Shown: positions 1 to 12,129 of the stretch, piece by piece
How the letters are laid out: the number at the start of each line of letters is the position of its first letter
How positions within the stretch are numbered: the stretch's first letter is position 1
NCBI GenBank assembly: GCA_050125095.1
Contig: JASFEA010000094.1
Coordinates: forward strand, 1 to 12,129
Source of the DNA: a bacterium
GTDB taxonomy: Bacteria > Arandabacterota > Arandabacteria > Arandabacterales > JALGWA01
Length of the DNA stretch: 12,129 nucleotides
Direction: 5' to 3'
Notes under the pieces: generated by a model
What the model was told of the DNA's origin: nothing
Database searches by the model: none
Seen by the model: the letters and a program-made list of their open reading frames with translations, nothing else
Translations under genes and position numbers: made by a program

Positions 1-471
1 AATACGGACGCCCGGACTCGCCTTTTCCAGGCCGCTCCCGCATTCAAGGTCCAGCCTGTTGCGCATGACGTCGAAACCCTCGCTGACCTTCACCTTGACA
101 AGCGCCGTCTCGCCCGGAACGAGCTGCCGGCTGGCGTAACGCAGGTTGAGCTGCACCATTACCAGAATCACGGGTATGATCATGACCAGCGCCGGGATGA
201 GGGAGAGCTTCATATAGCTCATATTGCTCTTCAGGATCTTGCCCTGCGACGCCAATACGTTGGATATGTCGTGGCTGTAGAGGCGGAGCTCGAGGAAATA
301 GGCGCTTATCCTGGTCTTGACCTCTTTCATCGCCTGCTGGTTCGAGGTAAACCTGAAGAGGAACAGCATCACGCCGCCGGTGAGGACGGATATGAAGATA
401 ATGCCGCCCATCGCGTTCCCGCCCTCGAAGGGCTTAAGAAGCAGCGTGAATATGCCGGTCAGAGCGCCCAA
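1..471 (-). CDS. Membrane protein, 3'-truncated by the window edge; resembles DUF106/EMC3/TMCO1 (Oxa1-superfamily) architecture
   Basis: Not in the ORF track; translated by hand. TTG at 471..469 with GAGGAG at 484..479 (7-nt spacer), open for 157 codons to position 1: MGALTGIFTLLLKPFEGGNAMGGIIFISVLTGGVMLFLFRFTSNQQAMKEVKTRISAYFLELRLYSHDISNVLASQGKILKSNMSYMKLSLIPALVMIIPVILVMVQLNLRYASRQLVPGETALVKVKV... It has two hydrophobic segments flanking an amphipathic helical stretch. The CDS itself is secure; the family call is pattern recognition. Confidence 0.75.
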   Translation of the reverse strand, partial: MGALTGIFTLLLKPFEGGNAMGGIIFISVLTGGVMLFLFRFTSNQQAMKEVKTRISAYFLELRLYSHDISNVLASQGKILKSNMSYMKLSLIPALVMIIPVILVMVQLNLRYASRQLVPGETALVKVKVSEGFDVMRNRLDLECGSGLEKASPGVRI

Positions 472-488
472 TTATGCTCTCCTCAAAC

Positions 489-680
489 CTATGATATGTA
501 TCCCAGGCCCTTGAGCCTTTCCTTGATTTCGTCGTCGTTCTCCGCGCCCTCGAGCTGGGCAAGTTCCTTCTCGATCAGGTGGACTATGAACTCGTCCACC
601 GACGAGTACCCCGCCAGCTCGGCGCATTTCTTGGCCCGTTCATAGAGCCCCTTTTCGAGCTTTATCTTGGGTCCGAACAT
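489..680 (-). CDS. Small (63 aa) ribbon-helix-helix/CopG-like protein with C-terminal RLxxLGY motif
   Basis: ATG at 680 with GGAGG at 693..689, directly after the upstream TGA (696..694); preferred over the track start at 728, which overlaps the upstream gene. MFGPKIKLEKGLYERAKKCAELAGYSSVDEFIVHLIEKEL follows a strand-helix-G-x-S-helix pattern, then an acidic linker and EIKERLKGLGYIS. Confidence 0.75.
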   Translation of the reverse strand: MFGPKIKLEKGLYERAKKCAELAGYSSVDEFIVHLIEKELAQLEGAENDDEIKERLKGLGYIS

Positions 681-693
681 GTAATTCGCCTCC

Positions 694-2661
694 TCACCTC
701 GCGGCCACTTCCCGCGTAAAGAGATCATTGCCGTCCATCTCGGGCAGCTTCTTTATCCCGAACTCGGCCAGGATCGTGGGAGCTATGTCCACCAGCGAGG
801 GGTTGGGGTTGTTGACGCGCCTGTTCGTGAAGAGCACTGCCGGAATCACGTCTTTTGACATCAGATGATCGCCGCTCCACTTCTTCTTATTGTCTGTAAG
901 AAGGTCGCGCGTGATTTTCCCCAGCGAAGTCTCCCAGGACGCCCTGTAGCCGTCGTCATAGCCTATTATGAGATCCGGCGCCTGGTCGGCGAATTCGCCT
1001 GAATAGACGTCACTTGACTTGTAGACCTCGGCGATTACCCGCCTGCCCGTCTCGGGGTCGACCACGGCCTCGAGCTTCTGCTTGAGCTCGTTCATTATAT
1101 GTTCCTTCTCGGCGCCGGGGGCAACCGCTCCCTGACCCTCCCGGCCGATCTGGTTTATATAGAGGCCGTTCAGCCCCAGCCCGTAGGCCTTGGTTCCTTT
1201 CCAGCTCACATTCTCGAAGAACTCGTCGCTTTCCTCGCGGAACGCGTCGCGAAGCTCGATGTAACCGTTCTGATAAAGCCAGGTATTGAGGTGGAAATTT
1301 CTCCTGAACGTCGTGAAACCGTGATCGGACAATACGATCACGGTGGCGTCGCCGCCGACGCGCTCCATGACATGCCCCACGACCGAGTCCATTCTGACGT
1401 AGTAATTCTCTATGACGTCGCCGTATATCTCCGCGAGTTCCGCGTCGTAAAGCGGATGCTCCGGGTCCCGGAATCTCCAGAACATATGCGACAGCGGGTC
1501 CGTCGTCGAGAAGTAGCAGAAAAGCATGCCCCATTCGTAGCGGTCCAGCTCGTACTCCAGCATCTTCTTGGTCTGCTGGAACACGAACTCGGACTGCTCC
1601 AGGTACTCGCTCTCATCCAGCCGGCCCTCGTTAAGCGCCCAGGTCTCTTCGGCGATGCCCTGGGTGTAGAAGGGGCCGATGGCCTCGGCGAGTTCCCTGG
1701 CGTAGCCGGGCGGCGTGGAAATGGGAACGGCCGGGTTCCTCGGATCGACCTGTATGGGGCTCATATAGAGCTCGAAGTCGGGTTTGACCGACTTGAGATA
1801 GAACCTGACGATGCCCTGCGCCGAAGCGAAAGGCATGAGCTTGAACTTGAGCGTTACCCAATCGCTCCACTCGCCCTCGCTTAAGAGGACCTCTTCGTCC
1901 TGCACCACTATCTTGGCCGCGCGGTAGTCGGGATCGAGATAAGCCGTAAACGGGATCTCGGCGTCCGGCCTGTCGGCCAGGAACGTGTTGACGGGGCCCT
2001 TTATCTTGGCTTCGACCTTGTTGTCGAAGCTCGAGACTATGTAGACCCTGCCGCCCGTCATATCCGTTATGACATACGGCTTGGTCGTAAAGAAAGAGAA
2101 GGTCCCGTACGTGCCCAGAATGTCGGGCGTCCCCATCCCCGAGATGCTTCTCGTCTTTTTGCCTGACGGCGGGAAGTTGGACGGGATTCTCAGCATCACC
2201 GTCGGGATGTCATAGTCCTCAAGCACCTCCCAGAAAGCCGTGCCTCCCCTCAGCAGCGAAACCTTGCCGCTGGTAAGAGGGATCACATATTTGCCGAGTT
2301 TTATGGTCTTGTCGGGCTCCTGCGTCACCGTCGTGGAGAGATAAGGCATATAGGTGTCGGGCTCCCGCCCCATGAAATCGTAGATACCATGCGCGCCCGG
2401 GTTGCAGCCCGTTATGACGTTGGACCAGGCCACGGGACTCTGCGGCGGTATGCCCGTCTCGAGCCTGGAGAATGTCCCCTTCTCCGAAAGCCGCTGGAAG
2501 TTGGGCATCCTGCCCTCTTCCAGGAGCTTCTGCGCGATCCTCGGGTCCATGCCGTCGAAACCAAGGACCACGACTTTGGGTTTGTTGCCGTCCTGGGCGA
2601 GACTGCTCAGCCCCGCCGCCAGCAGCCCGGCTGCAATGCAAATGACTATTATCTTCTTCAT
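694..2661 (-). CDS. Alkaline phosphatase superfamily protein (type I phosphodiesterase/nucleotide pyrophosphatase-like) with N-terminal signal peptide; paralog B
   Basis: Motifs VVVLGFDGMD, PPQSPVAWSNVITGCNPGAHGIYDF, DPLSH, SDHGF and WSGDH. Likely start is ATG 2661 (GAGGTGGGAGA upstream), giving MKKIIVICIAAGLLAAGLSSLA-QD, a Sec-type signal; 655 aa. The track start at 2718 is less likely. Confidence 0.9.
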   Translation of the reverse strand: MKKIIVICIAAGLLAAGLSSLAQDGNKPKVVVLGFDGMDPRIAQKLLEEGRMPNFQRLSEKGTFSRLETGIPPQSPVAWSNVITGCNPGAHGIYDFMGREPDTYMPYLSTTVTQEPDKTIKLGKYVIPLTSGKVSLLRGGTAFWEVLEDYDIPTVMLRIPSNFPPSGKKTRSISGMGTPDILGTYGTFSFFTTKPYVITDMTGGRVYIVSSFDNKVEAKIKGPVNTFLADRPDAEIPFTAYLDPDYRAAKIVVQDEEVLLSEGEWSDWVTLKFKLMPFASAQGIVRFYLKSVKPDFELYMSPIQVDPRNPAVPISTPPGYARELAEAIGPFYTQGIAEETWALNEGRLDESEYLEQSEFVFQQTKKMLEYELDRYEWGMLFCYFSTTDPLSHMFWRFRDPEHPLYDAELAEIYGDVIENYYVRMDSVVGHVMERVGGDATVIVLSDHGFTTFRRNFHLNTWLYQNGYIELRDAFREESDEFFENVSWKGTKAYGLGLNGLYINQIGREGQGAVAPGAEKEHIMNELKQKLEAVVDPETGRRVIAEVYKSSDVYSGEFADQAPDLIIGYDDGYRASWETSLGKITRDLLTDNKKKWSGDHLMSKDVIPAVLFTNRRVNNPNPSLVDIAPTILAEFGIKKLPEMDGNDLFTREVAAR

Positions 2662-2760
2662 TCTCCCACCTCTCGTCCGCCTACCCCGAATCCCCGCCCG
2701 GTCCGGGTAGAATAACATTCGGCTGTTGTTTGACCTGTGGTTGTTCTTGTCATACCTGTC

Positions 2761-4866
2761 TTACTCAAGCACAATCCTGCCGTCCACATACGCCGGCGGC
2801 CTGATTCCGAAAAGATCCAGCACCGTAGGCGCTATGTCAATAATGGAGACTTCCTCGGCCGTTACCTTCCTGTTGGATATGAAAGTCGCAGGCACGACAG
2901 TGGGGTCCACGCAGTGATCCCCGCTCCATGCCTTGGTATTGTCGGAGAATACTTCATCCGTGACGATCCCGGTGGCCGCGTCCCAGGACGCCCGGTAACC
3001 GGCACTCGAGCCCATTATGATCTCGGGTCCCTCGGCCGTGTAAGGCCCGGAGTAAACCTCCCGCCCCAGGTAGACGTTCTTTATGGCGACCATGCCGTTC
3101 TCGGGGTCCTTGAGGCCTTCAAGCTTGGCCTTGATCTCCGCGGCCAGCCCGGGCGCCTCATCGCGGGAGACTATGCCGTCGCGCTCTCTTCCCTTGACAT
3201 TGAGGAACACCCCGCCCAGCCCCAGCGCGTATGCTCTGGTGCGGCTCCAGTCGACCCCCTCGAACCACTCGCCGGCCTTCTCCCCGTCTTTCATGAAAAG
3301 ATAGCCCTCTTTCCTGAGCCAGGCGTTCAGGTTGATGCCGCGCCTGAATGACTTGAAGCCGTGGTCGGACATCACGATAAGCGCGGTCCTGTCGGTGACA
3401 TAGGGCATAACCCTGCCCACTATCCTGTCGACGTCCGCGTACAGGTGCTCGAGAGCGTTCTTGTGCTTCTCCGACTCCTTGTCGCGGTTGGCCGGATGGT
3501 CCGGGTCGATATATCTCCACAGCATATGCTGCATGCGGTCGGTGTTGTCGAAGACGCAGACAACCGCGCCCTTTTTCACCTTGTCGAGCTCGTTCATGAG
3601 CATGTCCTCGCGCTCTTTGTTTATAAGGTAGGTCTGCTCGATGAACTGCGTTTCGTCTATGACGCGCTCGTTAAGCGCCCAGGTGTCCTCCGCCAGCCCC
3701 ATGGTGGCATACGGCCCCATGAGCTTGGAAAGGTAAACCGAGTAATGGAAGGGATGCGAAATGGGCATCGCCGGTTTCTCAGGGTCTATGTGTATGGGAG
3801 TCATGTAGAGCTCGGCCTCGGGCTCGACCGACTGCAATATGAACCGGACCACGCCCTGAACGTGAATGCCGAGGCCCGCGTTGAAGTCGAGCGTCACCCA
3901 CCGCGAGTGCTTGCCGAGTTCGAGGTCCACGGTTTCTTTGCCCATGGCCAGCGTACCCGCTTTGCCGGCGGCGCCGTCGCCGTTCCCGCCCGGCGTCAGG
4001 GTGAAGCGGATCTTGAGCGGCGGCTCGCCTTCCAGCATGGCGTTGGGAGGCCCGATTATGTCTCCCGAGAAACCTCCGCCGTTCCGCTCCAGCTTGTAGG
4101 CAAACCCGCCCGTGTGCTGGCCGACGCGCGCGGGGTCGGATGAATAGAATGAGAAGCTCCCCTGCGTTCCCCTCAGGTCGGGCACGCAGAGCGACGAGAT
4201 GAGAACTCCGGTCGAGAACTTCTCGGGCGGGAAAGTAATGGGCACTCTTATTATCGATGAGAAGACCTCGTGCTCCCCGAGTATCGTCCAGAAAGGTTTG
4301 CTTTTCCTGAGCGGCCGGTAGGAGGGCTTCCCGATGGGGAACTTGTATTTGCCCACTCTCAAGAACTTCGTAGGAGGCCGGATCTCCGCCGACGATAGCT
4401 TGGAAAGATAAGACCGGCGCTCGGGCGCCAGGAAGTCGAATATGTTATGCTTGCCCGGATTGACCCCCGTCGAGAAGGACGACCAGGCCACGGGCGATAT
4501 GGGTGGCGTCGTACTTCTCATGGCCTTGAAACTCCCAGCGTCCATGAGCTTTTGGATATTGGGAAGAATGCCCTTCTTGAGGTACTTCTGCAGAAGCACG
4601 GGGTCGAGGCCGTCGAAGCCGAGTATGATGACCTTGTCGACCCTGCCCTCCACGGACTTGCCCCGGCGCCGTATCTTCCTTATCAGGAAGCGGATAGGCC
4701 AGGTCAAGAAGAAGAAAAACGCAAGGAAGAAGGTGGCGAATAATATGAGGAAGGAGGTCATGAAGGCAAAACCGGCCCCGGGTCCTATATAGGCGTACCC
4801 GGCTTCAGGAGCAATCAATATGGCTGCCGATGCCAGGATAAGTATCAGACCGGCTCTAGGCTTCAC
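2761..4866 (-). CDS. Alkaline phosphatase superfamily protein (phosphodiesterase/nucleotide pyrophosphatase-like) with signal peptide, YIGPGAG motif and TM anchor; paralog A
   Basis: Motifs VIILGFDGLD, PPISPVAWSSFSTGVNPGKHNIFDF, DRMQH, SDHGF and WSGDH; colinear with paralog B. Likely start is GTG 4866 (AGGGGG at 4876..4871); 701 aa. The N-terminus has a hydrophobic signal, GYA-YIGPGAG, a Phe-rich TM helix and RKIRRRGK. Confidence 0.9.
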   Translation of the reverse strand: MKPRAGLILILASAAILIAPEAGYAYIGPGAGFAFMTSFLILFATFFLAFFFFLTWPIRFLIRKIRRRGKSVEGRVDKVIILGFDGLDPVLLQKYLKKGILPNIQKLMDAGSFKAMRSTTPPISPVAWSSFSTGVNPGKHNIFDFLAPERRSYLSKLSSAEIRPPTKFLRVGKYKFPIGKPSYRPLRKSKPFWTILGEHEVFSSIIRVPITFPPEKFSTGVLISSLCVPDLRGTQGSFSFYSSDPARVGQHTGGFAYKLERNGGGFSGDIIGPPNAMLEGEPPLKIRFTLTPGGNGDGAAGKAGTLAMGKETVDLELGKHSRWVTLDFNAGLGIHVQGVVRFILQSVEPEAELYMTPIHIDPEKPAMPISHPFHYSVYLSKLMGPYATMGLAEDTWALNERVIDETQFIEQTYLINKEREDMLMNELDKVKKGAVVCVFDNTDRMQHMLWRYIDPDHPANRDKESEKHKNALEHLYADVDRIVGRVMPYVTDRTALIVMSDHGFKSFRRGINLNAWLRKEGYLFMKDGEKAGEWFEGVDWSRTRAYALGLGGVFLNVKGRERDGIVSRDEAPGLAAEIKAKLEGLKDPENGMVAIKNVYLGREVYSGPYTAEGPEIIMGSSAGYRASWDAATGIVTDEVFSDNTKAWSGDHCVDPTVVPATFISNRKVTAEEVSIIDIAPTVLDLFGIRPPAYVDGRIVLE

Positions 4867-4967: not shown

Positions 4968-5531
4968 CTATCCCGTAAGTCGTTTGAAACTAATCTTTTT
5001 CATCACTGCCCCGGACCCGAGCTCGACGATCCTGGCATCTATTCTGTCGCCGCTGATGTCGAGCACGGCATACGTGGGCGAAAAGCCCCTTTTGTCTTGT
5101 CCTTTTAGATGCCCCGGATTCACCAGAAGCACCCCGTTTTTGACCTCGATTGAGGGTATATGCAGGTGTCCGAACAGGAGCACGTCGATTCTCCGGGACG
5201 CAACCATTTGCTCGGGCCTGGGGTCGCCCGCAATGTCATGGGGATGGGACTCAGGGGTATGGGACAGCATGATTTTATGGCCTTCCACTTCCTCTATGAT
5301 GCGGTTGGGAACGCGGCTTTCGGCATAGAGATCGTGGAACACCCCCGGGACTCTCAGGTAATCGTATTCAAACTCGTCAAATACCCCGGCGTCCTCGTAA
5401 TTGTCCCCGAGATGGAAGAAGAGGTCGATCTTCTCCCTGGATGTGATCTCGCGGACGGCCGCCCTGAGGCCCTCCAGATTGCCGTGCGTATCGCTGACTA
5501 CCGCTATTCTCGTGGTCTTCACCCCCCTCAC
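4968..5531 (-). CDS. Calcineurin-like metallophosphoesterase, YfcE/MJ0936 family
   Basis: Motifs VVSDTHGN, HLGD, LSH, FGHLH and LVNPG at the expected spacing; 187 aa. Start could be GTG 5531 or GTG 5522. Confidence 0.9.
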   Translation of the reverse strand: MRGVKTTRIAVVSDTHGNLEGLRAAVREITSREKIDLFFHLGDNYEDAGVFDEFEYDYLRVPGVFHDLYAESRVPNRIIEEVEGHKIMLSHTPESHPHDIAGDPRPEQMVASRRIDVLLFGHLHIPSIEVKNGVLLVNPGHLKGQDKRGFSPTYAVLDISGDRIDARIVELGSGAVMKKISFKRLTG

Positions 5532-5630: not shown

Positions 5631-8213
5631 TCACCTCTGGCGGGTTCCGGAAAGCACAAAAGCCCCCGTCCAGGCATCGAAACCCGTCACGTCGCCCGAA
5701 TCATCGGTTCTGAAGGTAACCGTCCAGCCCATTGCGGGTGAGAAGAAATCCATCGGGCTCTCCGGAAGAAGCAGTACGCGGGCGCCTTCAGTCCCGGGAT
5801 CGGGGGCGTAGAGGCGGCCGTCCTCCACCCAGAACGGCAAGGTACCGAGGCCCGGAAGGTCGTAGTTGCCGGTCACGGCATTAAGCTGTTCCTCTGTGAG
5901 AACCGCAGGGTTCTTCTTCTCAGGCTGGTAGTCGGGCCAGTCATAGGTGACGGCGATGGCGCGCAGGATCTCTCCGTAAAGGTGGTCGCCGGCATCGGAG
6001 TTCGTCATGATGACGGCCCCTTTGCCCGTGCGGGCGTATGCCGCCAGCAGGTTGCGATAGCCGCGGTTGCCTCCGCTGTGGGTGAACATGACCTCGCCGT
6101 GTCCGCTTGACACCGCAAGGCCCAGCCCGTAATGCCCCACTCGCCACGTCAGCATGTCGCGCGCCGTCTCCTTCTTAAGCAGGCTGCCGGCCTCCCCTGA
6201 GTATGACTTCTGAATCTCCACGGCGAAGCGCGCGAGGTCGGAAGGCGTGGACCACAGGCCCGCGCCGGCGCCGTACTCGGGATAGAGGTGATAACCGCCG
6301 TCTACCGGCGTGCCGTCGGCCAGATATGCGAAAGCGGCGTTCTCCTCCAGTTCAGCAGGCAGGGCGGCGCTGTAAAACGTTCTGGTCATCCCGGCCGGTT
6401 CGAATACCAGCTCGCGCATGGCATCTTCGAACGGCTCGCCGAGGACGTCCTCAAACATCTGCTGGAGCACCATGAAGCCTCCGCCTGAGTACCTCCACTG
6501 CGTGCCGGGGACCAGGTCCACCCTTACCGGCGGCGTATTGCAGGGCGGCGTCCCGTCCAGGACCTCCACAAGCGTCGGGAGGTCGGACCCCTTCGGATAG
6601 CCCGGGAAACCGTGCACCGTGGTTCCGGCCGAATGGCTGAGGAGCATTTCCAGAGTCACGTCTCTATCCCCGGTGAACTCGTTCTCCGGGAGTCTCCAGG
6701 ACCGGAGATAACGGTTGACGTCGACGTCGAGGTCGAAAACCCCCTTCTCTACAAGCCTCAGCGCGCCCGCCGAGGTCACGGGTTTGCCTATGGAGGCGAC
6801 CTGGAAAAGCGTCTCGGTATCCACCATGCGGCCTGTGCCGGCCTCGAGCTCGCCGTAGCCTTCAGCCCACTCGATGCGGCCCCCGTTTATGACCGCTATG
6901 CTCACGCCGGGCACCTGGTAGTGCTTCATGCGTTCGTATATGTTGTAGGTTTTCTGGAACTCTTCATGCCCATCCACCATAAAAGCCGTACACAGTCCGT
7001 TCTCGACGCTTCGCATGCGCGAGCCGACTTCATCCGAGCCCGCGCCGGCGGCCCCTCCCAGCAATATTTGCACGGCCTTCGTCCGCAACGTTTCCTTCCT
7101 GTCTTTGGAGTTCATCTGGTTTATTGTAAGGACGACACTCATGTCCTCTTCGGGACAGTAATAGGCGTCGCACGAATACGCTCCCGGGTGGCCGTAGAAA
7201 GTCCTCCCGCCTATGATCATCCTTTTTATGCCGAAGCCATAGTTCCAATGGTCGTCTTTTACCGTCGCGGCCAGCATTGCATCAAGCGTCGACCTCTTCT
7301 CAAACAACTCCCCCTTAAGAAGCGCCCGGTAGAAGGTGTTGAGGTCTTCTGTGGTGGACACGATGCCGCCGCCACCCCAGTCGAAGGACGTGTTGACATC
7401 GCGGGAGACGTTCATGCTCCCATAGAAGGCATGTGACAGGGGCGCCTCCCCCCTCGGTTCCTCATAGTACTCGAGATAGGAATTGTCCAGGCCGAGGGGC
7501 TCGAATATGCGGGTGCGGTATTGCTCGTGAAGGGGAGTGCCGGTCACCTTCTCGATGATGAGTCCCAGCAGCATGTAATTGGTATCGGTGTATTCCCAGC
7601 CCTCCCCCGGCGCGAAAGCCGGCTTCCGGTTGAGATGGTACTCGAAGTACTTGTCCATCATCATGGCCGGCGTCCACTGGATCCGGGGATGCTCTATTAT
7701 GTACTGAATGAATCTGGGGTCTCCGCCCAGATAGCATCCCAGGCCGCTCGTATGCCCGAGGAGGTGCTCTATGGTGACGCGCCGGCCATAAGAAACCCCG
7801 TCTATCAATTGCAGGGTATCGAGCGGCACCACGGGTGATGAGGCGAAGAACTCATCGAGAGTATCGTCCAGACCGAGCACTCCCTCCTCCACGAGCTGCA
7901 GCACCACCGCGGACGTGAAGGTTTTGCTGATGCTTGCGATCTTGTAAGCGTGGTCCGGCGTCATGGGCTCGCCTGCGCCGTCGGCTTGCCCGGCGGCCCC
8001 CTTGTATTTGAAGCCGGGGCCCTCGACCAGAAGCACCGCGTTATGAATCGGGTCCTCGTCCGCCGGGTCTATCACATTCTCGATCAGGGCCCTTAGGTCA
8101 TTCCCGACCGGGCCTGGGCCGCGTCCGTCTGCCGTAACGTGGACGGCCGCCAGAAGTGCCATGACGCCCGCCAGCACGCACCACTTCGCCGGAGAGATAT
8201 CCGTTGAGAGCAT
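5631..8213 (-). CDS. Secreted serine hydrolase with two tandem beta-lactamase/PBP-like (AmpC/R61-type) domains and a C-terminal beta-rich (DUF3471-like) domain
   Basis: Domain 1: ASISK, LLGHTSGL, YTDTNY, GHPG. Domain 2: ASIGK, LLSHSAG, YSGGG, THSGG. Likely start is ATG 8213 (GGAGGA 6 nt upstream) rather than 8228; hydrophobic signal WCVLAGVMALLAAVHVTA. Confidence 0.9.
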   Translation of the reverse strand: MLSTDISPAKWCVLAGVMALLAAVHVTADGRGPGPVGNDLRALIENVIDPADEDPIHNAVLLVEGPGFKYKGAAGQADGAGEPMTPDHAYKIASISKTFTSAVVLQLVEEGVLGLDDTLDEFFASSPVVPLDTLQLIDGVSYGRRVTIEHLLGHTSGLGCYLGGDPRFIQYIIEHPRIQWTPAMMMDKYFEYHLNRKPAFAPGEGWEYTDTNYMLLGLIIEKVTGTPLHEQYRTRIFEPLGLDNSYLEYYEEPRGEAPLSHAFYGSMNVSRDVNTSFDWGGGGIVSTTEDLNTFYRALLKGELFEKRSTLDAMLAATVKDDHWNYGFGIKRMIIGGRTFYGHPGAYSCDAYYCPEEDMSVVLTINQMNSKDRKETLRTKAVQILLGGAAGAGSDEVGSRMRSVENGLCTAFMVDGHEEFQKTYNIYERMKHYQVPGVSIAVINGGRIEWAEGYGELEAGTGRMVDTETLFQVASIGKPVTSAGALRLVEKGVFDLDVDVNRYLRSWRLPENEFTGDRDVTLEMLLSHSAGTTVHGFPGYPKGSDLPTLVEVLDGTPPCNTPPVRVDLVPGTQWRYSGGGFMVLQQMFEDVLGEPFEDAMRELVFEPAGMTRTFYSAALPAELEENAAFAYLADGTPVDGGYHLYPEYGAGAGLWSTPSDLARFAVEIQKSYSGEAGSLLKKETARDMLTWRVGHYGLGLAVSSGHGEVMFTHSGGNRGYRNLLAAYARTGKGAVIMTNSDAGDHLYGEILRAIAVTYDWPDYQPEKKNPAVLTEEQLNAVTGNYDLPGLGTLPFWVEDGRLYAPDPGTEGARVLLLPESPMDFFSPAMGWTVTFRTDDSGDVTGFDAWTGAFVLSGTRQR

Positions 8214-8235
8214 GTACGTTCCTCCCATTCGCAGG

Positions 8236-10193: not shown

Positions 10194-11270
10194 TCAGAGC
10201 CTGTCCTCGGGCGCGGCCTGAGATAAGAAGAATTCCCCAAGTGTCCGGCCCACGATTTCGTGACCCACTACGTTCCAGTGCAGATCATCACCGAAAATCA
10301 CAGCTGTCCCGCCTGCATCCGCTTTTCCCAGCGCCTCCGCGATGCTGACGAAGTGAATCCCGTGGGACTCGGCGAGGTCTATCAAGTCAATTGTGTCGTC
10401 GTGGTGAATGAAACCGCGCGCGGGGTCGGGTACGACAGTCATGATGAGGCTGCAGCCCCTGTTTTCGCAGGCGTCGCACATGGCAAGAACCAGCGCCTGC
10501 GTGACGACCTCACCCCTCCGCTCTACAGCACTCCGGCCCTCGGGCAGATCCGACTTGTCAGCCAGATCTCGAAAATGAAACCGGGCGGCGCGGTGCTTGA
10601 CAAAGTTGAGCAGGTGAGAACTCGCAAAGAGCGTTCTATAGCCCGGCATCCAAGCGGTAGCTTGCTGGACTGTCCGCCATAGCGTTTTGGGGGCGTCATG
10701 CTTGACGAGCTCCCCGTCTTCCAGAGTGTAGAGGCCGCAAGTGATATTGTCCCAATAGTCATTTGCCTGGCAGAAGCAAAGAACAACGTAGTCCGGGTCA
10801 TACTTGATACCCTCTCTCAAGAATAGGGCGTATTGCTGTGCCGTGCCGGTGCTACCGACCCCCATATTAAGTACTTCCCACGTCTCATCGCCCCCGCCCT
10901 CAGCATTCAGGATGCGCTCCAGCACCTTTGAGAAGGTCTCATCGGCCTGAACCCCATAGCCAAAAGTAAAAGAATCCCCAAGGACTATGATCCGCTTAAT
11001 TCCTTCACGCTTCTCATAAGCGAATTCGCGGTCGCGGAGCCCTTTGGAGTTAATTATCGCATCCATCTTGAAGTCCTTGGTTTTCACAAAACCCCTCCCA
11101 CCACATATATGTCTTGTTCCGACTTCCCGATCCCAAGTGTTGACAATCGCCGCGAAGCGCGTCTGTGGCCGGAAGATCCGGATCAGTGCTTCCATTGCGA
11201 CGAGGGTGACGATGAGCGCAACACATACGATTAGGATGTTTATGGCGAATCCTGCCAGGCGTGATCGCAT
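10194..11270 (-). CDS. Membrane-anchored SGNH/GDSL hydrolase family protein (AlgX/AlgJ/DltD-like acyltransferase or esterase)
   Basis: N-terminal TM helix, INSKGLRD, VLGDSFTFG (catalytic Ser), LNMGVGSTGT, ANDYWD and DDLHWN (Asp-His). RBS GGAGG at 11282..11278. Confidence 0.88.
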   Translation of the reverse strand: MRSRLAGFAINILIVCVALIVTLVAMEALIRIFRPQTRFAAIVNTWDREVGTRHICGGRGFVKTKDFKMDAIINSKGLRDREFAYEKREGIKRIIVLGDSFTFGYGVQADETFSKVLERILNAEGGGDETWEVLNMGVGSTGTAQQYALFLREGIKYDPDYVVLCFCQANDYWDNITCGLYTLEDGELVKHDAPKTLWRTVQQATAWMPGYRTLFASSHLLNFVKHRAARFHFRDLADKSDLPEGRSAVERRGEVVTQALVLAMCDACENRGCSLIMTVVPDPARGFIHHDDTIDLIDLAESHGIHFVSIAEALGKADAGGTAVIFGDDLHWNVVGHEIVGRTLGEFFLSQAAPEDRL

Positions 11271-11302
11271 TCAAATGCCTCCAGTCGAGCTCAAGGCGGC
11301 GC

Positions 11303-11461
11303 CTAGAAGAGCGCATAGATGAATGGAGCTACGGCTGTCCCTTCCGTCAGGACTATAAGAACACCGAGGAGCACCACGAGAATAATAATTGGGGTCAGCC
11401 ACCACTTCCTTCGTCGCTTGAGGAACTCCATGAGTTCCATAAAGGTACTCAATCTCCCCAT
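11303..11461 (-). CDS. DUF5989/SxtK-like small membrane protein (52 aa)
   Basis: MGRLSTFMELMEFLKRRRKWWLTPIIILVVLLGVLIVLTEGTAVAPFIYALF carries the family pattern FL..RKKWWL.P...APFIY.LF. ATG 11461 is preceded by GGAGAAGG; the track start at 11512 is less likely. Confidence 0.85.
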   Translation of the reverse strand: MGRLSTFMELMEFLKRRRKWWLTPIIILVVLLGVLIVLTEGTAVAPFIYALF

Positions 11462-11521
11462 GTGCGCCTTCTCCATCTTGACGTATGAGCGGACAATCGT
11501 GTCATCCGCCATGTGATATTA

Positions 11522-11944
11522 CTAATACTGGCGCTCATAGCTTTCCGGACCGCGCTCGGTTACTTCCTTCGGTCTCCAATAGGTTCGAGCCCCGGGATCC
11601 TTGCCAAGGTTCAGGAATTCCTTGCCGAAGAGACGTCCCGCAATTGCAATCGGAGACACTCCAACATAGAAGATTACACATAGCAGTACGCGGGTCATCA
11701 CCCAGCTCAAAACCAGGGCCAGGCCCATCCACAGCCTAAAGACGAGTCCGAGTGCGCGCGGCAGAAAAGCACCGAGCACAAAAAACACCACCGCCAAGGC
11801 AAGGAAATAAGGGCATATCTCCTTGCCGCGCCAGAGAAGAAGCGCCCCCAATACGGCGAAACAGACAGCCATGGTGAAGCCGAAATTCCTGAGCCTTCTC
11901 TTTGCTGGCTCGGCCAGGTCGATATGCTCTGCTCCAGGTCTCAT
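11522..11944 (-). CDS. SxtJ family membrane protein
   Basis: LRNFG, three hydrophobic segments, WM.LA..L.WV.TRVLL..IFY....PI, TYW and terminal ERQY. ATG 11944 overlaps the carbamoyltransferase stop (TGATG), suggesting translational coupling; the track start is 11971. Confidence 0.85.
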   Translation of the reverse strand: MRPGAEHIDLAEPAKRRLRNFGFTMAVCFAVLGALLLWRGKEICPYFLALAVVFFVLGAFLPRALGLVFRLWMGLALVLSWVMTRVLLCVIFYVGVSPIAIAGRLFGKEFLNLGKDPGARTYWRPKEVTERGPESYERQY

Positions 11945-12129
11945 CAGTCCAGCTCTATTTCCTTGCGCCACTCCATATCAGGCTGGGGCTGCTTCTGCTC
12001 TCCCTTGTCCAGCAGGAAGTTGCCCATTAGCAGGTAGTCCATCCTGGTCCGCATGAAGCACTTGTACGCGTCATCGGGAGTGCAGACGATGGGCTCCCCC
12101 CTTACGTTGAAGGAGGTGTTTATGATCAC
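11944..12129 (-). CDS. Carbamoyltransferase (NodU/CmcH/TobZ/SxtI family), C-terminal fragment; 5' part lies outside the window
   Basis: VIINTSFNVRGEPIVCTPDDAYKCFMRTRMDYLLMGNFLL is the characteristic C-terminal NTSFN..GEPIV motif; the ending WRKEIELD is typical of the SxtJ-linked subfamily. Confidence 0.92.
   Translation of the reverse strand: MIINTSFNVRGEPIVCTPDDAYKCFMRTRMDYLLMGNFLLDKGEQKQPQPDMEWRKEIELD

Follow-up and report, generated by a model that had tools for sequence, protein, structure and literature searches.

A conserved bacterial operon pairing predicted inner- and outer-face phosphodiesterase-fold enzymes with an Oxa1-like membrane protein, and its link to activated sulfate

Closest described systems and the four-gene operon

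Among described systems, the nearest functional analogy to the locus treated here, and a functional analogy only, is offered by GtrA/GtrB/GtrC and ArnC/ArnEF/ArnT, in which an enzyme at the inner face of the membrane, a small membrane protein and an enzyme at the outer face are encoded together. The locus in question is a cassette of four minus-strand genes, encoding two paralogous alkaline-phosphatase-fold enzymes (A and B), a small protein and a membrane protein. It was found in the window, by which we mean the whole stretch of DNA analysed, namely the entire 12,129-nt contig C94 of genome G000 (3.35 Mb in 268 contigs, 91% complete) from an uncultured sediment bacterium. Unlike the Gtr and Arn systems, the cassette contains no GT2, GT-C or known flippase family, both of its enzymes are of the alkaline-phosphatase fold, and a lipid-linked intermediate is hypothetical.

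Each of the four proteins also has described counterparts. A and B resemble the NPP/PhnA/PafA clade (PF01663) in their two-metal ligand set, in the position of their nucleophile and in profile score, but, unlike that clade, they lack an NCBIfam family, have an uncovered middle part and form what looks like an obligate inside/outside pair with a membrane protein. What is more, their nucleophile is a Ser, as opposed to the Thr of NPP. The outer-face transferases EptA, LtaS and OpgB come from the same superfamily and move groups from a lipid donor to an envelope acceptor through a covalent Thr/Ser intermediate; however, they are proteins of the sulfatase family (PF00884) with five membrane helices at the N-terminus, whereas B is predicted to be a soluble or lipid-anchored exported member of PF01663. 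The membrane protein shares with the Oxa1 superfamily (YidC, archaeal DUF106, EMC3, GET1, TMCO1) a three-helix core and a cytoplasmic hairpin after the first transmembrane helix (TM1), but differs in its immunoglobulin-like (Ig-like) loop of 130 residues, in its setting within an enzyme operon and in a Pfam score below the cut-off. The small protein may have the strand-helix-helix core of Arc, CopG, NikR and the PutA N-terminal domain (Foldseek E of approximately 0.3), but, unlike these ribbon-helix-helix (RHH) repressors, it has an additional C-terminal helix bearing an LGY tail that it has in common with enzymes. Finally, the rhizobial NodPQ/NodH modules and sulfated capsule clusters combine sulfate-activating genes and sulfotransferases with envelope-glycan genes, as is also seen near the cassette, but they are without a PF01663 pair, an Oxa1-fold protein or a shared C-terminal tail. 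The separate components fall within or resemble superfamilies that are already known (PF01663, Oxa1, RHH), while their combination is undescribed in the literature searched: full-text searches on the alkaline-phosphatase superfamily with sulfation, on bacterial DUF106/Oxa1, on nucleotide pyrophosphatases with sulfate activation and on the tail motif gave, in those parts of the texts that they reached, no system of this composition.

Here we show that the four genes form one conserved operon, the order of which is kept across phyla, and we tentatively propose that it encodes a membrane-spanning enzyme set for an envelope modification linked to 3'-phosphoadenosine 5'-phosphosulfate (PAPS), the chemistry of which we infer. 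In the direction of transcription, the genes are A, B, the small protein and the membrane protein, separated by gaps of 99, 13 and 17 nt. Among 41 genomes sampled around that of the host, the membrane protein is present in 19, namely in the whole of the host's own genus, in 12 of 13 genomes of the sister family, in both genomes of the next family and in 2 of 23 from other lineages. In the loci of 14 of these genomes, the full order was seen ten times, three loci were cut by contig ends but consistent with it, and one (G034) was rearranged, with A followed by the small and membrane genes and then by a B-like gene. In addition, a scan of metagenomes with an alignment of the small protein returned at least 507 confirmed relatives among 599 matched stretches, the best 80 loci of which (L065 to L144) were analysed. 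Of the 73 loci with enough downstream DNA, 72 have the membrane gene as the next gene after the small one; the small gene is immediately preceded by a paralog in 66 of 67, and paralogs of the A type and of the B type are both found upstream in 22 of the 25 loci with at least 4.6 kb of upstream sequence (the exceptions being L067, L088 and L139). A sequence-only reading of this DNA had described the four co-oriented genes with these same gaps, had proposed conservation of their order as a check on its idea, and had supposed that no characterised system has this composition; the gene layout was confirmed, the order proved to be kept across phyla, and the searches of the literature agree with the last point as far as they go.

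A profile of the membrane protein retrieved 3082 representative clusters out of 1.84 billion at E<=1e-3, and 965 at the stricter limit of 1e-30, and with approximately 3000 such clusters the family is therefore no rarity of one genome. In the Atlas, the neighbouring clusters come from Aminicenantota, Acidobacteriota and Planctomycetota and are named "hypothetical protein", and NCBIfam gives no match above cut-off for any of the four cassette proteins. As for expression, one metatranscriptome library contains three contigs that match the cassette at identities of at least 99% (positions 332-554, 847-997 and 1022-1172), the first of which spans the junction of the small and membrane genes and the other two of which fall inside B. 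Metatranscriptome libraries can contain DNA, and stretches without RNA contigs are uninformative, so that this gives a weak hint of expression in the host. DNA contigs of two sequencing runs reach past base 1 of the window. Note also that G008, a genome of the same order and likewise 91% complete, has six matches to the tail pattern and a tailed APS (adenosine 5'-phosphosulfate) kinase, and that the membrane protein was not found in it with the query used, which may reflect an assembly gap or a loss.

Active sites, membrane topology and the Oxa1-like protein

Both enzymes match Phosphodiest (PF01663) well above its gathering cut-off of 23 bits (108.4 bits for A and 119.2 bits for B), in two stretches each with some 250 residues between them uncovered, and the two are 40% identical to one another over 629 residues (E 4e-172). 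Across 14 orthologues of each, D85, S124, D443, H447, D501, H502, D650 and H651 are invariant in A, and D36, S75, D388, H392, D446, H447, D598 and H599 are invariant in B, the assignment of individual residues to metal sites being made by analogy. A Ser/Thr nucleophile position approximately nine residues before a TG motif is found in both. With every metal ligand and the nucleophile Ser conserved without exception, A and B both look catalytically competent. When compared with the PDB, the profile of A weakly matched NPP (2gsn, 7n1s, 7mw8), PhnA (3szy) and a sulfatase (9bb9) at E-values of 1e-5 to 3e-3, and the profile alignment sets Ser124 on the formylglycine cysteine of the sulfatase; a single-sequence search of the PDB with B found no solved relative at E<=0.01. 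Judging by their sequences, A and B belong to a branch of PF01663 without a characterised member. The family as a whole is strongly expanded in the host genome, with 33 matches, corresponding to about 18-20 genes in 3.35 Mb.

Where do the two catalytic domains reside? The N-terminus of A consists, in this order, of a basic start, a hydrophobic segment running to GYA, the motif YIGPGAG, approximately 30 uncharged residues, WPIRF and the catalytic GFDG strand, ahead of which there are nine Lys/Arg between R59 and K78. In the alignment of 14 orthologues, Y26, G28, P29, G30, A31, G32, P57 and R59 are invariant. The same layout recurs in 36 A-type N-termini from relatives and metagenomes: in most of them a small-x-small triplet, mostly AxA, precedes YIGPGAG (the 12 commonest triplets include 30 AxA), after which come 33-42 residues without Lys/Arg, while the next 15 residues contain 4-9 Lys/Arg and a median of 0 Asp/Glu. 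By the positive-inside rule, the catalytic domain of A is therefore predicted to be cytoplasmic, with A anchored in the inner membrane, regardless of whether the first segment is cleaved, forms one arm of a hairpin or is absent. In B, on the other hand, MKKIIVICIAAGLLAAGLSSLA is followed by QD and then by the catalytic strand, the N-terminus thus comprising a basic start, a hydrophobic core and the boundary SLA/Q. Most of 30 B-type N-termini have a hydrophobic core 7-32 residues ahead of the catalytic strand (median core score 2.25), and simple patterns mark 10 of the 30 as lipobox-like and 6 as twin-arginine-like. The occurrence of three export routes (Sec, lipoprotein and twin-arginine-like) within one family argues that B acts outside the cytoplasm, and it is predicted to be the exported paralog. 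Both topologies are derived from sequence rules and simple patterns.

Turning to the membrane protein, full-length orthologues are 267-290 residues long, with a helical hairpin, highly conserved and rich in Lys/Arg, between TM1 and TM2 and a beta domain of 130 residues between TM2 and TM3. An AlphaFold2 (AF2) model of one such orthologue (pLDDT 85) has helices at residues 20-42, 45-64, 69-112 and 247-266, and, from this model and Foldseek, the 130-residue domain that fills the loop between TM2 and TM3 is Ig-like. Searched against the PDB with Foldseek, the model gave Ig-like matches to this loop only. The VIA search, in turn, had as its top match chain 8 of 7tut, a multipass translocon (Z 11.7 over 136 residues, model residues 14-269), the next row scoring 8.6, and it also returned YidC (3wo7_A, Z 8.1 over residues 1-269) and an EMC chain (6ww7_C, Z 7.3). 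Chain 8 of 7tut is TMCO1. The Pfam profile EMC3_TMCO1 (PF01956) scores 21.6 bits (E 2e-4) with the fragment encoded in the window and 20.5 bits with the orthologue, below the cut-off of 27.1, and it matches 7 of 12 orthologues at E<=0.01 and 0 of 12 at the cut-off. The Oxa1-type fold is therefore assigned by structural search, the profile scores falling short of family membership. Taken together, the model and these matches strongly indicate a three-helix fold of the Oxa1/TMCO1/YidC type, in which the helical hairpin faces the cytoplasm and the Ig-like domain the periplasm. A prediction of a complex between the membrane protein and the small protein scored 0.00 and gave no answer, speaking neither for nor against a contact.

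The earlier reading had noted intact metal-ligand and nucleophile motifs in both paralogs, a signal peptide, a membrane helix and a basic stretch in A as opposed to a signal peptide alone in B, catalytic domains on opposite faces of the membrane and an insertase-like membrane protein. The motifs have turned out to be invariant in the orthologues, the N-terminal features agree with that reading, the first segment of A being signal-peptide-like or one arm of a hairpin, the opposite-face topology is supported by both sets of N-termini, and the resemblance to insertases holds at the level of fold.

The LGY tail and activated sulfate

The small protein matches no Pfam family at gathering score, and a single-sequence search of the PDB with it gave chance-level rows only. 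Its AF2 model (pLDDT 92), however, has an extended N-terminus and helices at residues 10-23, 28-41 and 49-59, the third of which is the tail, and the top Foldseek rows are the RHH domains of NikR, Arc and PutA (probability 0.99, rmsd 1.5 A over 42 residues, E of approximately 0.3). Among 22 members of the family, there are weak matches to RHH_1 in 3 and to PSK_trans_fac in 12 (E<=0.1). The model and these matches suggest a cytoplasmic ribbon-helix-helix protein. Its 377 related clusters, some of them from Acidobacteriota and Candidatus Saccharicenans, bear the names "hypothetical" or "predicted CopG family antitoxin", and its orthologues are 60-95% identical across phyla, with Lys7 in the strand invariant. 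A second, more divergent small RHH-like protein occurs near the cassette in five loci (L114, 9787-9987; L121, 344-559; L128, 8220-8504; L044, 10786-11037; L045, 2341-2598); the copies in L044 and L045 end in ...RLRNLGYLD, while those in L114, L121 and L128 are matches to a hidden Markov model (HMM) alone.

The tail itself consists of an acidic linker and the sequence (I/V)K(E/K)RLKGLGYIS, and it is near-invariant across phyla. The 3' end of the small gene shares a 24-nt identity with contig C30 of the same genome, which prompted a genome-wide scan for the tail. Of the 33,686 open reading frames (ORFs) of at least 50 residues in G000, 16 end in LGY followed by a hydrophobic residue and at most three further residues, and 10 of these 16 have the extended tail. 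The ten comprise three Phosphodiest proteins, three members of the sulfatase family, an APS kinase and the small protein itself, besides a 329-residue protein (C31) and a C-terminal fragment (C160), neither of which has a Pfam family. Signal peptides are absent from the tailed APS kinase and the 329-residue protein, and likewise from two of the Phosphodiest proteins and one of the sulfatase family, while one tailed Phosphodiest protein has five N-terminal membrane spans. As a pattern at the DNA level, the tail is found 2-8 times per genome in 18 genomes of the order and class (reversed control, 0-1), and it is present on the APS kinase of all 14 order-level genomes that have one. Genomes of other lineages have the pattern no more often than expected by chance, and it is found on 0 of their 10 APS kinases. 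Antisense artefacts of greedy ORF calling (e.g. L100:913-1713) were disregarded.

Two known roles of C-terminal motifs were considered and rejected, namely that of a proteasome-activator HbYX motif, in that the Tyr of the tail is not fixed in the penultimate position (the ends are GYI, GYIS or GYIE), and that of a sortase-type sorting signal, in that no membrane span follows the tail. The tail region (positions 492-536) also weakly matches Pfam DUF7557, a family of 45 positions without a function, in 6 of 22 members (best E 0.003). As to the surroundings of the tailed paralogs, several adjoin glycosyltransferases (C30 with GT4, C99 with GT1, C31 with GT2/GT5), that on C160 adjoins an LPG_synthase_TM protein and GT2s, and radical-SAM genes (G000:C260:1647-2828 and G000:C99:2637-3926; one with SPASM) lie near a tailed sulfatase and a tailed Phosphodiest gene and may be sulfatase-maturase-like.

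The genes that surround the cassette in other genomes and in metagenomes make a strong link to sulfate. Pfam searches of the neighbours in 14 long loci identified APS kinases, Sulfotransfer_3, a CysQ-like phosphatase and PAPS reductase, sulfatases, TauE and short Phosphodiest paralogs. By HMM, an APS kinase accompanies the cassette in 9 of the 80 loci (8 of the 32 that are at least 7 kb long) and a Sulfotransfer_3-like sulfotransferase of approximately 200 residues in 13 of the 80 (11 of the 32), so that 17 of the 32 long loci have one or both. The sulfotransferase gene directly follows the membrane gene in 5 loci and directly precedes A in 8. Several of the cassette-adjacent APS kinases end in the tail (L071, L086/L128 and L112; G016 and G017), although the tail on APS kinase is limited to certain lineages, as detailed above. 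Short Phosphodiest paralogs were found in 7 of the 80 loci, in 6 of these 7 together with an APS kinase and in none together with the sulfotransferase. The short paralogs and the small sulfotransferase may thus be mutually exclusive, possibly through non-orthologous replacement, but this exclusivity is a hint, as the number of overlaps to be expected in the 32 long loci is approximately two and the loci are related to one another.

In the host itself, contig C4 carries a sulfate locus (C4:1-11000, L145) with a sulfate symporter, Usp, ATP sulfurylase and an LGY-tailed APS kinase, as well as four short cytoplasmic Phosphodiest paralogs, a thymidylate-kinase-like gene and a GT1. The thymidylate-kinase-like gene was considered as a hidden sulfotransferase and rejected, since it looks like a genuine relative of thymidylate kinase. 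PAPS reductase, CysD, Sulfotransfer_1 and Sulfotransfer_3 were not found in this 91%-complete genome, and an HMM of the cassette-linked sulfotransferase likewise gave no match in it. Sulfotransfer_3 is mostly missing from relatives at the order and class level as well (three weak matches in 18 genomes). The sequence-only reading had listed a phospho-, a phosphodiester- or a sulfo-linked group as that which the pair of enzymes might handle. The genomic context narrows this list to PAPS and sulfate metabolism.

Possible functions of the cassette and its surroundings

The reading that we favour, although with considerable reserve, is that of a membrane-spanning enzyme set for PAPS-linked envelope modification. 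According to it, a membrane-bound intermediate, derived from or modified by PAPS, would be the substrate of A at the inner face, where A would act by way of a covalent Ser intermediate, a procoat-like N-terminal anchor holding it in the inner membrane with its NPP-type domain in the cytoplasm. The Oxa1-fold protein would anchor A and give the intermediate access to the outer face, where B would complete or edit the modification. YidC is described in PMC11997395 as an insertase that is a lipid scramblase as well. The LGY tail, finally, may be a docking peptide through which one partner collects APS kinase, the tailed enzymes and the small protein.

That said, a number of points weigh against this proposal. 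The transfer of a group from A to B, the use of the membrane protein as a conduit and contacts among the four proteins are suppositions, and the substrate and the carrier are hypothetical. Related genomes are non-independent samples. In the host, the sulfate-activation genes lie on contig C4, away from the cassette, and in 15 of the 32 long loci no gene of either kind, APS kinase or sulfotransferase, is found within the fetched flanks. While an APS kinase is present in 17 of 19 genomes with the cassette, as compared with 9 of 22 without it, it is thus common in the absence of the cassette, too. The searches for Sulfotransfer_2 and Sulfotransfer_4 matched no control genome and are hence uninformative. 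One tailed sulfatase (C260) has a lipoprotein-type signal, and the tail is therefore not strictly cytoplasmic. What is more, in G034 and G035, which belong to other phyla and have the cassette, the strict tail pattern is found on the small protein alone, and docking of APS kinase by the tail is therefore not universal.

If the proposal were true, it would amount to an undescribed modification of the envelope across the inner membrane in bacteria of several poorly known phyla. In particular, a bacterial Oxa1/EMC3-like protein would be tied to enzymes, away from general protein insertion, two alkaline-phosphatase-fold paralogs, obligately paired, would cooperate from inside and outside, and a short C-terminal peptide would be common to APS kinase, to phosphodiesterase- and sulfatase-like enzymes and to a tiny RHH protein. 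Through this shared peptide, the long-standing question of how periplasmic acceptors come by sulfate or related groups, PAPS being made in the cytoplasm only, could be addressed by direct tests, and one subgroup of the many proteins annotated as "alkaline phosphatase family protein" would gain a function.

Could the membrane protein simply be a dedicated insertase for the anchor of A? In such a case, A and B would be independent hydrolases that recycle or scavenge esters inside and outside the cell, and the small protein would repress the operon. M13 procoat is the textbook substrate of YidC alone, and the N-terminus of A, with its cleavable-looking leader, very short outer loop, single span and basic inner flank, has the procoat layout. 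Moreover, members of PF01663 are mostly hydrolases, the small protein resembles DNA-binding repressors in its probable RHH fold, the Lys7 of its strand being invariant, and contacts between the cassette proteins are, as stated, hypothetical. However, this explanation does not account for an inside/outside pair of paralogs being kept with the membrane protein in one operon across phyla, for the conserved periplasmic Ig-like domain or for a tail common to the small protein, APS kinase and cytoplasmic enzymes, and no operator-like repeats were found upstream of A, of the YfcE-type gene that precedes it or of the next gene. On balance, we consider it rather unlikely, although it is the strongest of the competing explanations.

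A more elaborate version of our proposal is a true relay, in which A, through a covalent Ser intermediate, would load a PAPS-derived sulfuryl or phospho-sulfate group on a membrane carrier, the Oxa1-fold protein, as a scramblase or conduit instead of an insertase of proteins, would bring it to the outer leaflet, and B would transfer the group to an envelope glycan or lipid. The RLKGLGYI tail and the acidic linker would assemble a sulfation complex, gathering APS kinase, the short enzymes (possibly non-canonical sulfotransferases) and the RHH protein at the membrane. In this specific form, we regard the relay as unlikely.

Another explanation is that the alkaline-phosphatase-fold enzymes are themselves non-canonical sulfotransferases working through a sulfo-Ser, with the short paralogs replacing the small sulfotransferase and A and B performing the membrane-bound steps. 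It would fit the distribution of the two kinds of genes, which were never seen together, and the predicted ability of the host to make PAPS (Sat and APS kinase) in a genome where PAPS reductase, Sulfotransfer_1 and Sulfotransfer_3 were not found, as well as the scarcity of Sulfotransfer_3 in relatives and the position of the nucleophile Ser on that of the sulfatase formylglycine. Against this stand the statistical weakness of the exclusivity, the possibility that sulfotransferases of other families are present (the searches for Sulfotransfer_2 and Sulfotransfer_4 lacking a working control) and the incompleteness of the genome, and we know of no sulfotransferase of the alkaline-phosphatase fold. 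All in all, this explanation appears quite improbable. Finally, that the small protein is a CopG-type antitoxin or an unrelated regulator that came by chance to lie among enzyme genes, the cassette being no functional unit, is suggested by the names of some homologues and by the weak PSK_trans_fac matches, but it is strongly disfavoured because the gene order is conserved, with B and the membrane gene flanking the small gene at nearly every locus, no toxin gene adjoining it and its sequence well kept across phyla, and we give it hardly any credence.

The features of the cassette and of its immediate upstream neighbour are collected in Table 1.

Table 1. Positions of the cassette genes, selected protein segments and the upstream gene in the window
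Feature	Position	Strand	Description
Paralog A	2761..4866	-	701 aa; GTG start at 4866, with GGGGGA 5-6 nt upstream; Pfam Phosphodiest, E 7.6e-31
Paralog A, residues 1-25	4792..4866	-	Basic start and hydrophobic segment ending in G-Y-A; signal-peptide-like or first hairpin arm
Paralog A, residues 26-72	4651..4791	-	YIGPGAG, ~30 uncharged residues (predicted membrane span), WPIRF, Lys/Arg cluster
Paralog B	694..2661	-	655 aa; ATG start at 2661; Pfam Phosphodiest, E 4e-34
Paralog B, residues 1-22	2596..2661	-	Predicted Sec-type signal peptide
Small protein	489..680	-	63 aa; ATG start at 680; probable ribbon-helix-helix type
Small protein, residues 49-63	492..536	-	Acidic linker and RLKGLGYIS tail
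Membrane protein	1..471	-	TTG start at 471; 157 of ~269 aa, the rest beyond the contig end
YfcE-type metallophosphoesterase	4968..5531	-	101 nt upstream of A; Metallophos_2, E 1.1e-22; TIGR00040, 78.9 bits, above cut-off

The YfcE-type gene precedes A in loci L037, L039, L040, L042 and L050, while none was seen in L043 to L047; it is a neighbour of the cassette that is retained solely within the order to which the host belongs. A scan for promoters and terminators returned 4 promoter-like sites as compared with 3.1 expected, none of them useful. Further upstream, a minus-strand gene at 5631-8228, which ends 99 nt upstream of the YfcE-type gene, encodes a protein of 865 residues, in which a hydrophobic N-terminus is followed by a tandem pair of PF00144 stretches of the beta-lactamase/transpeptidase type and the end weakly matches DUF3471. 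At the far end of the window, positions 10194-12129 of the same strand encode the C-terminal part of a carbamoyltransferase, cut by the end of the contig, an SxtJ-family membrane protein, a DUF5989 protein and a GDSL/SGNH hydrolase, which together constitute a cluster of the O-carbamoylation type with no relation to the cassette.

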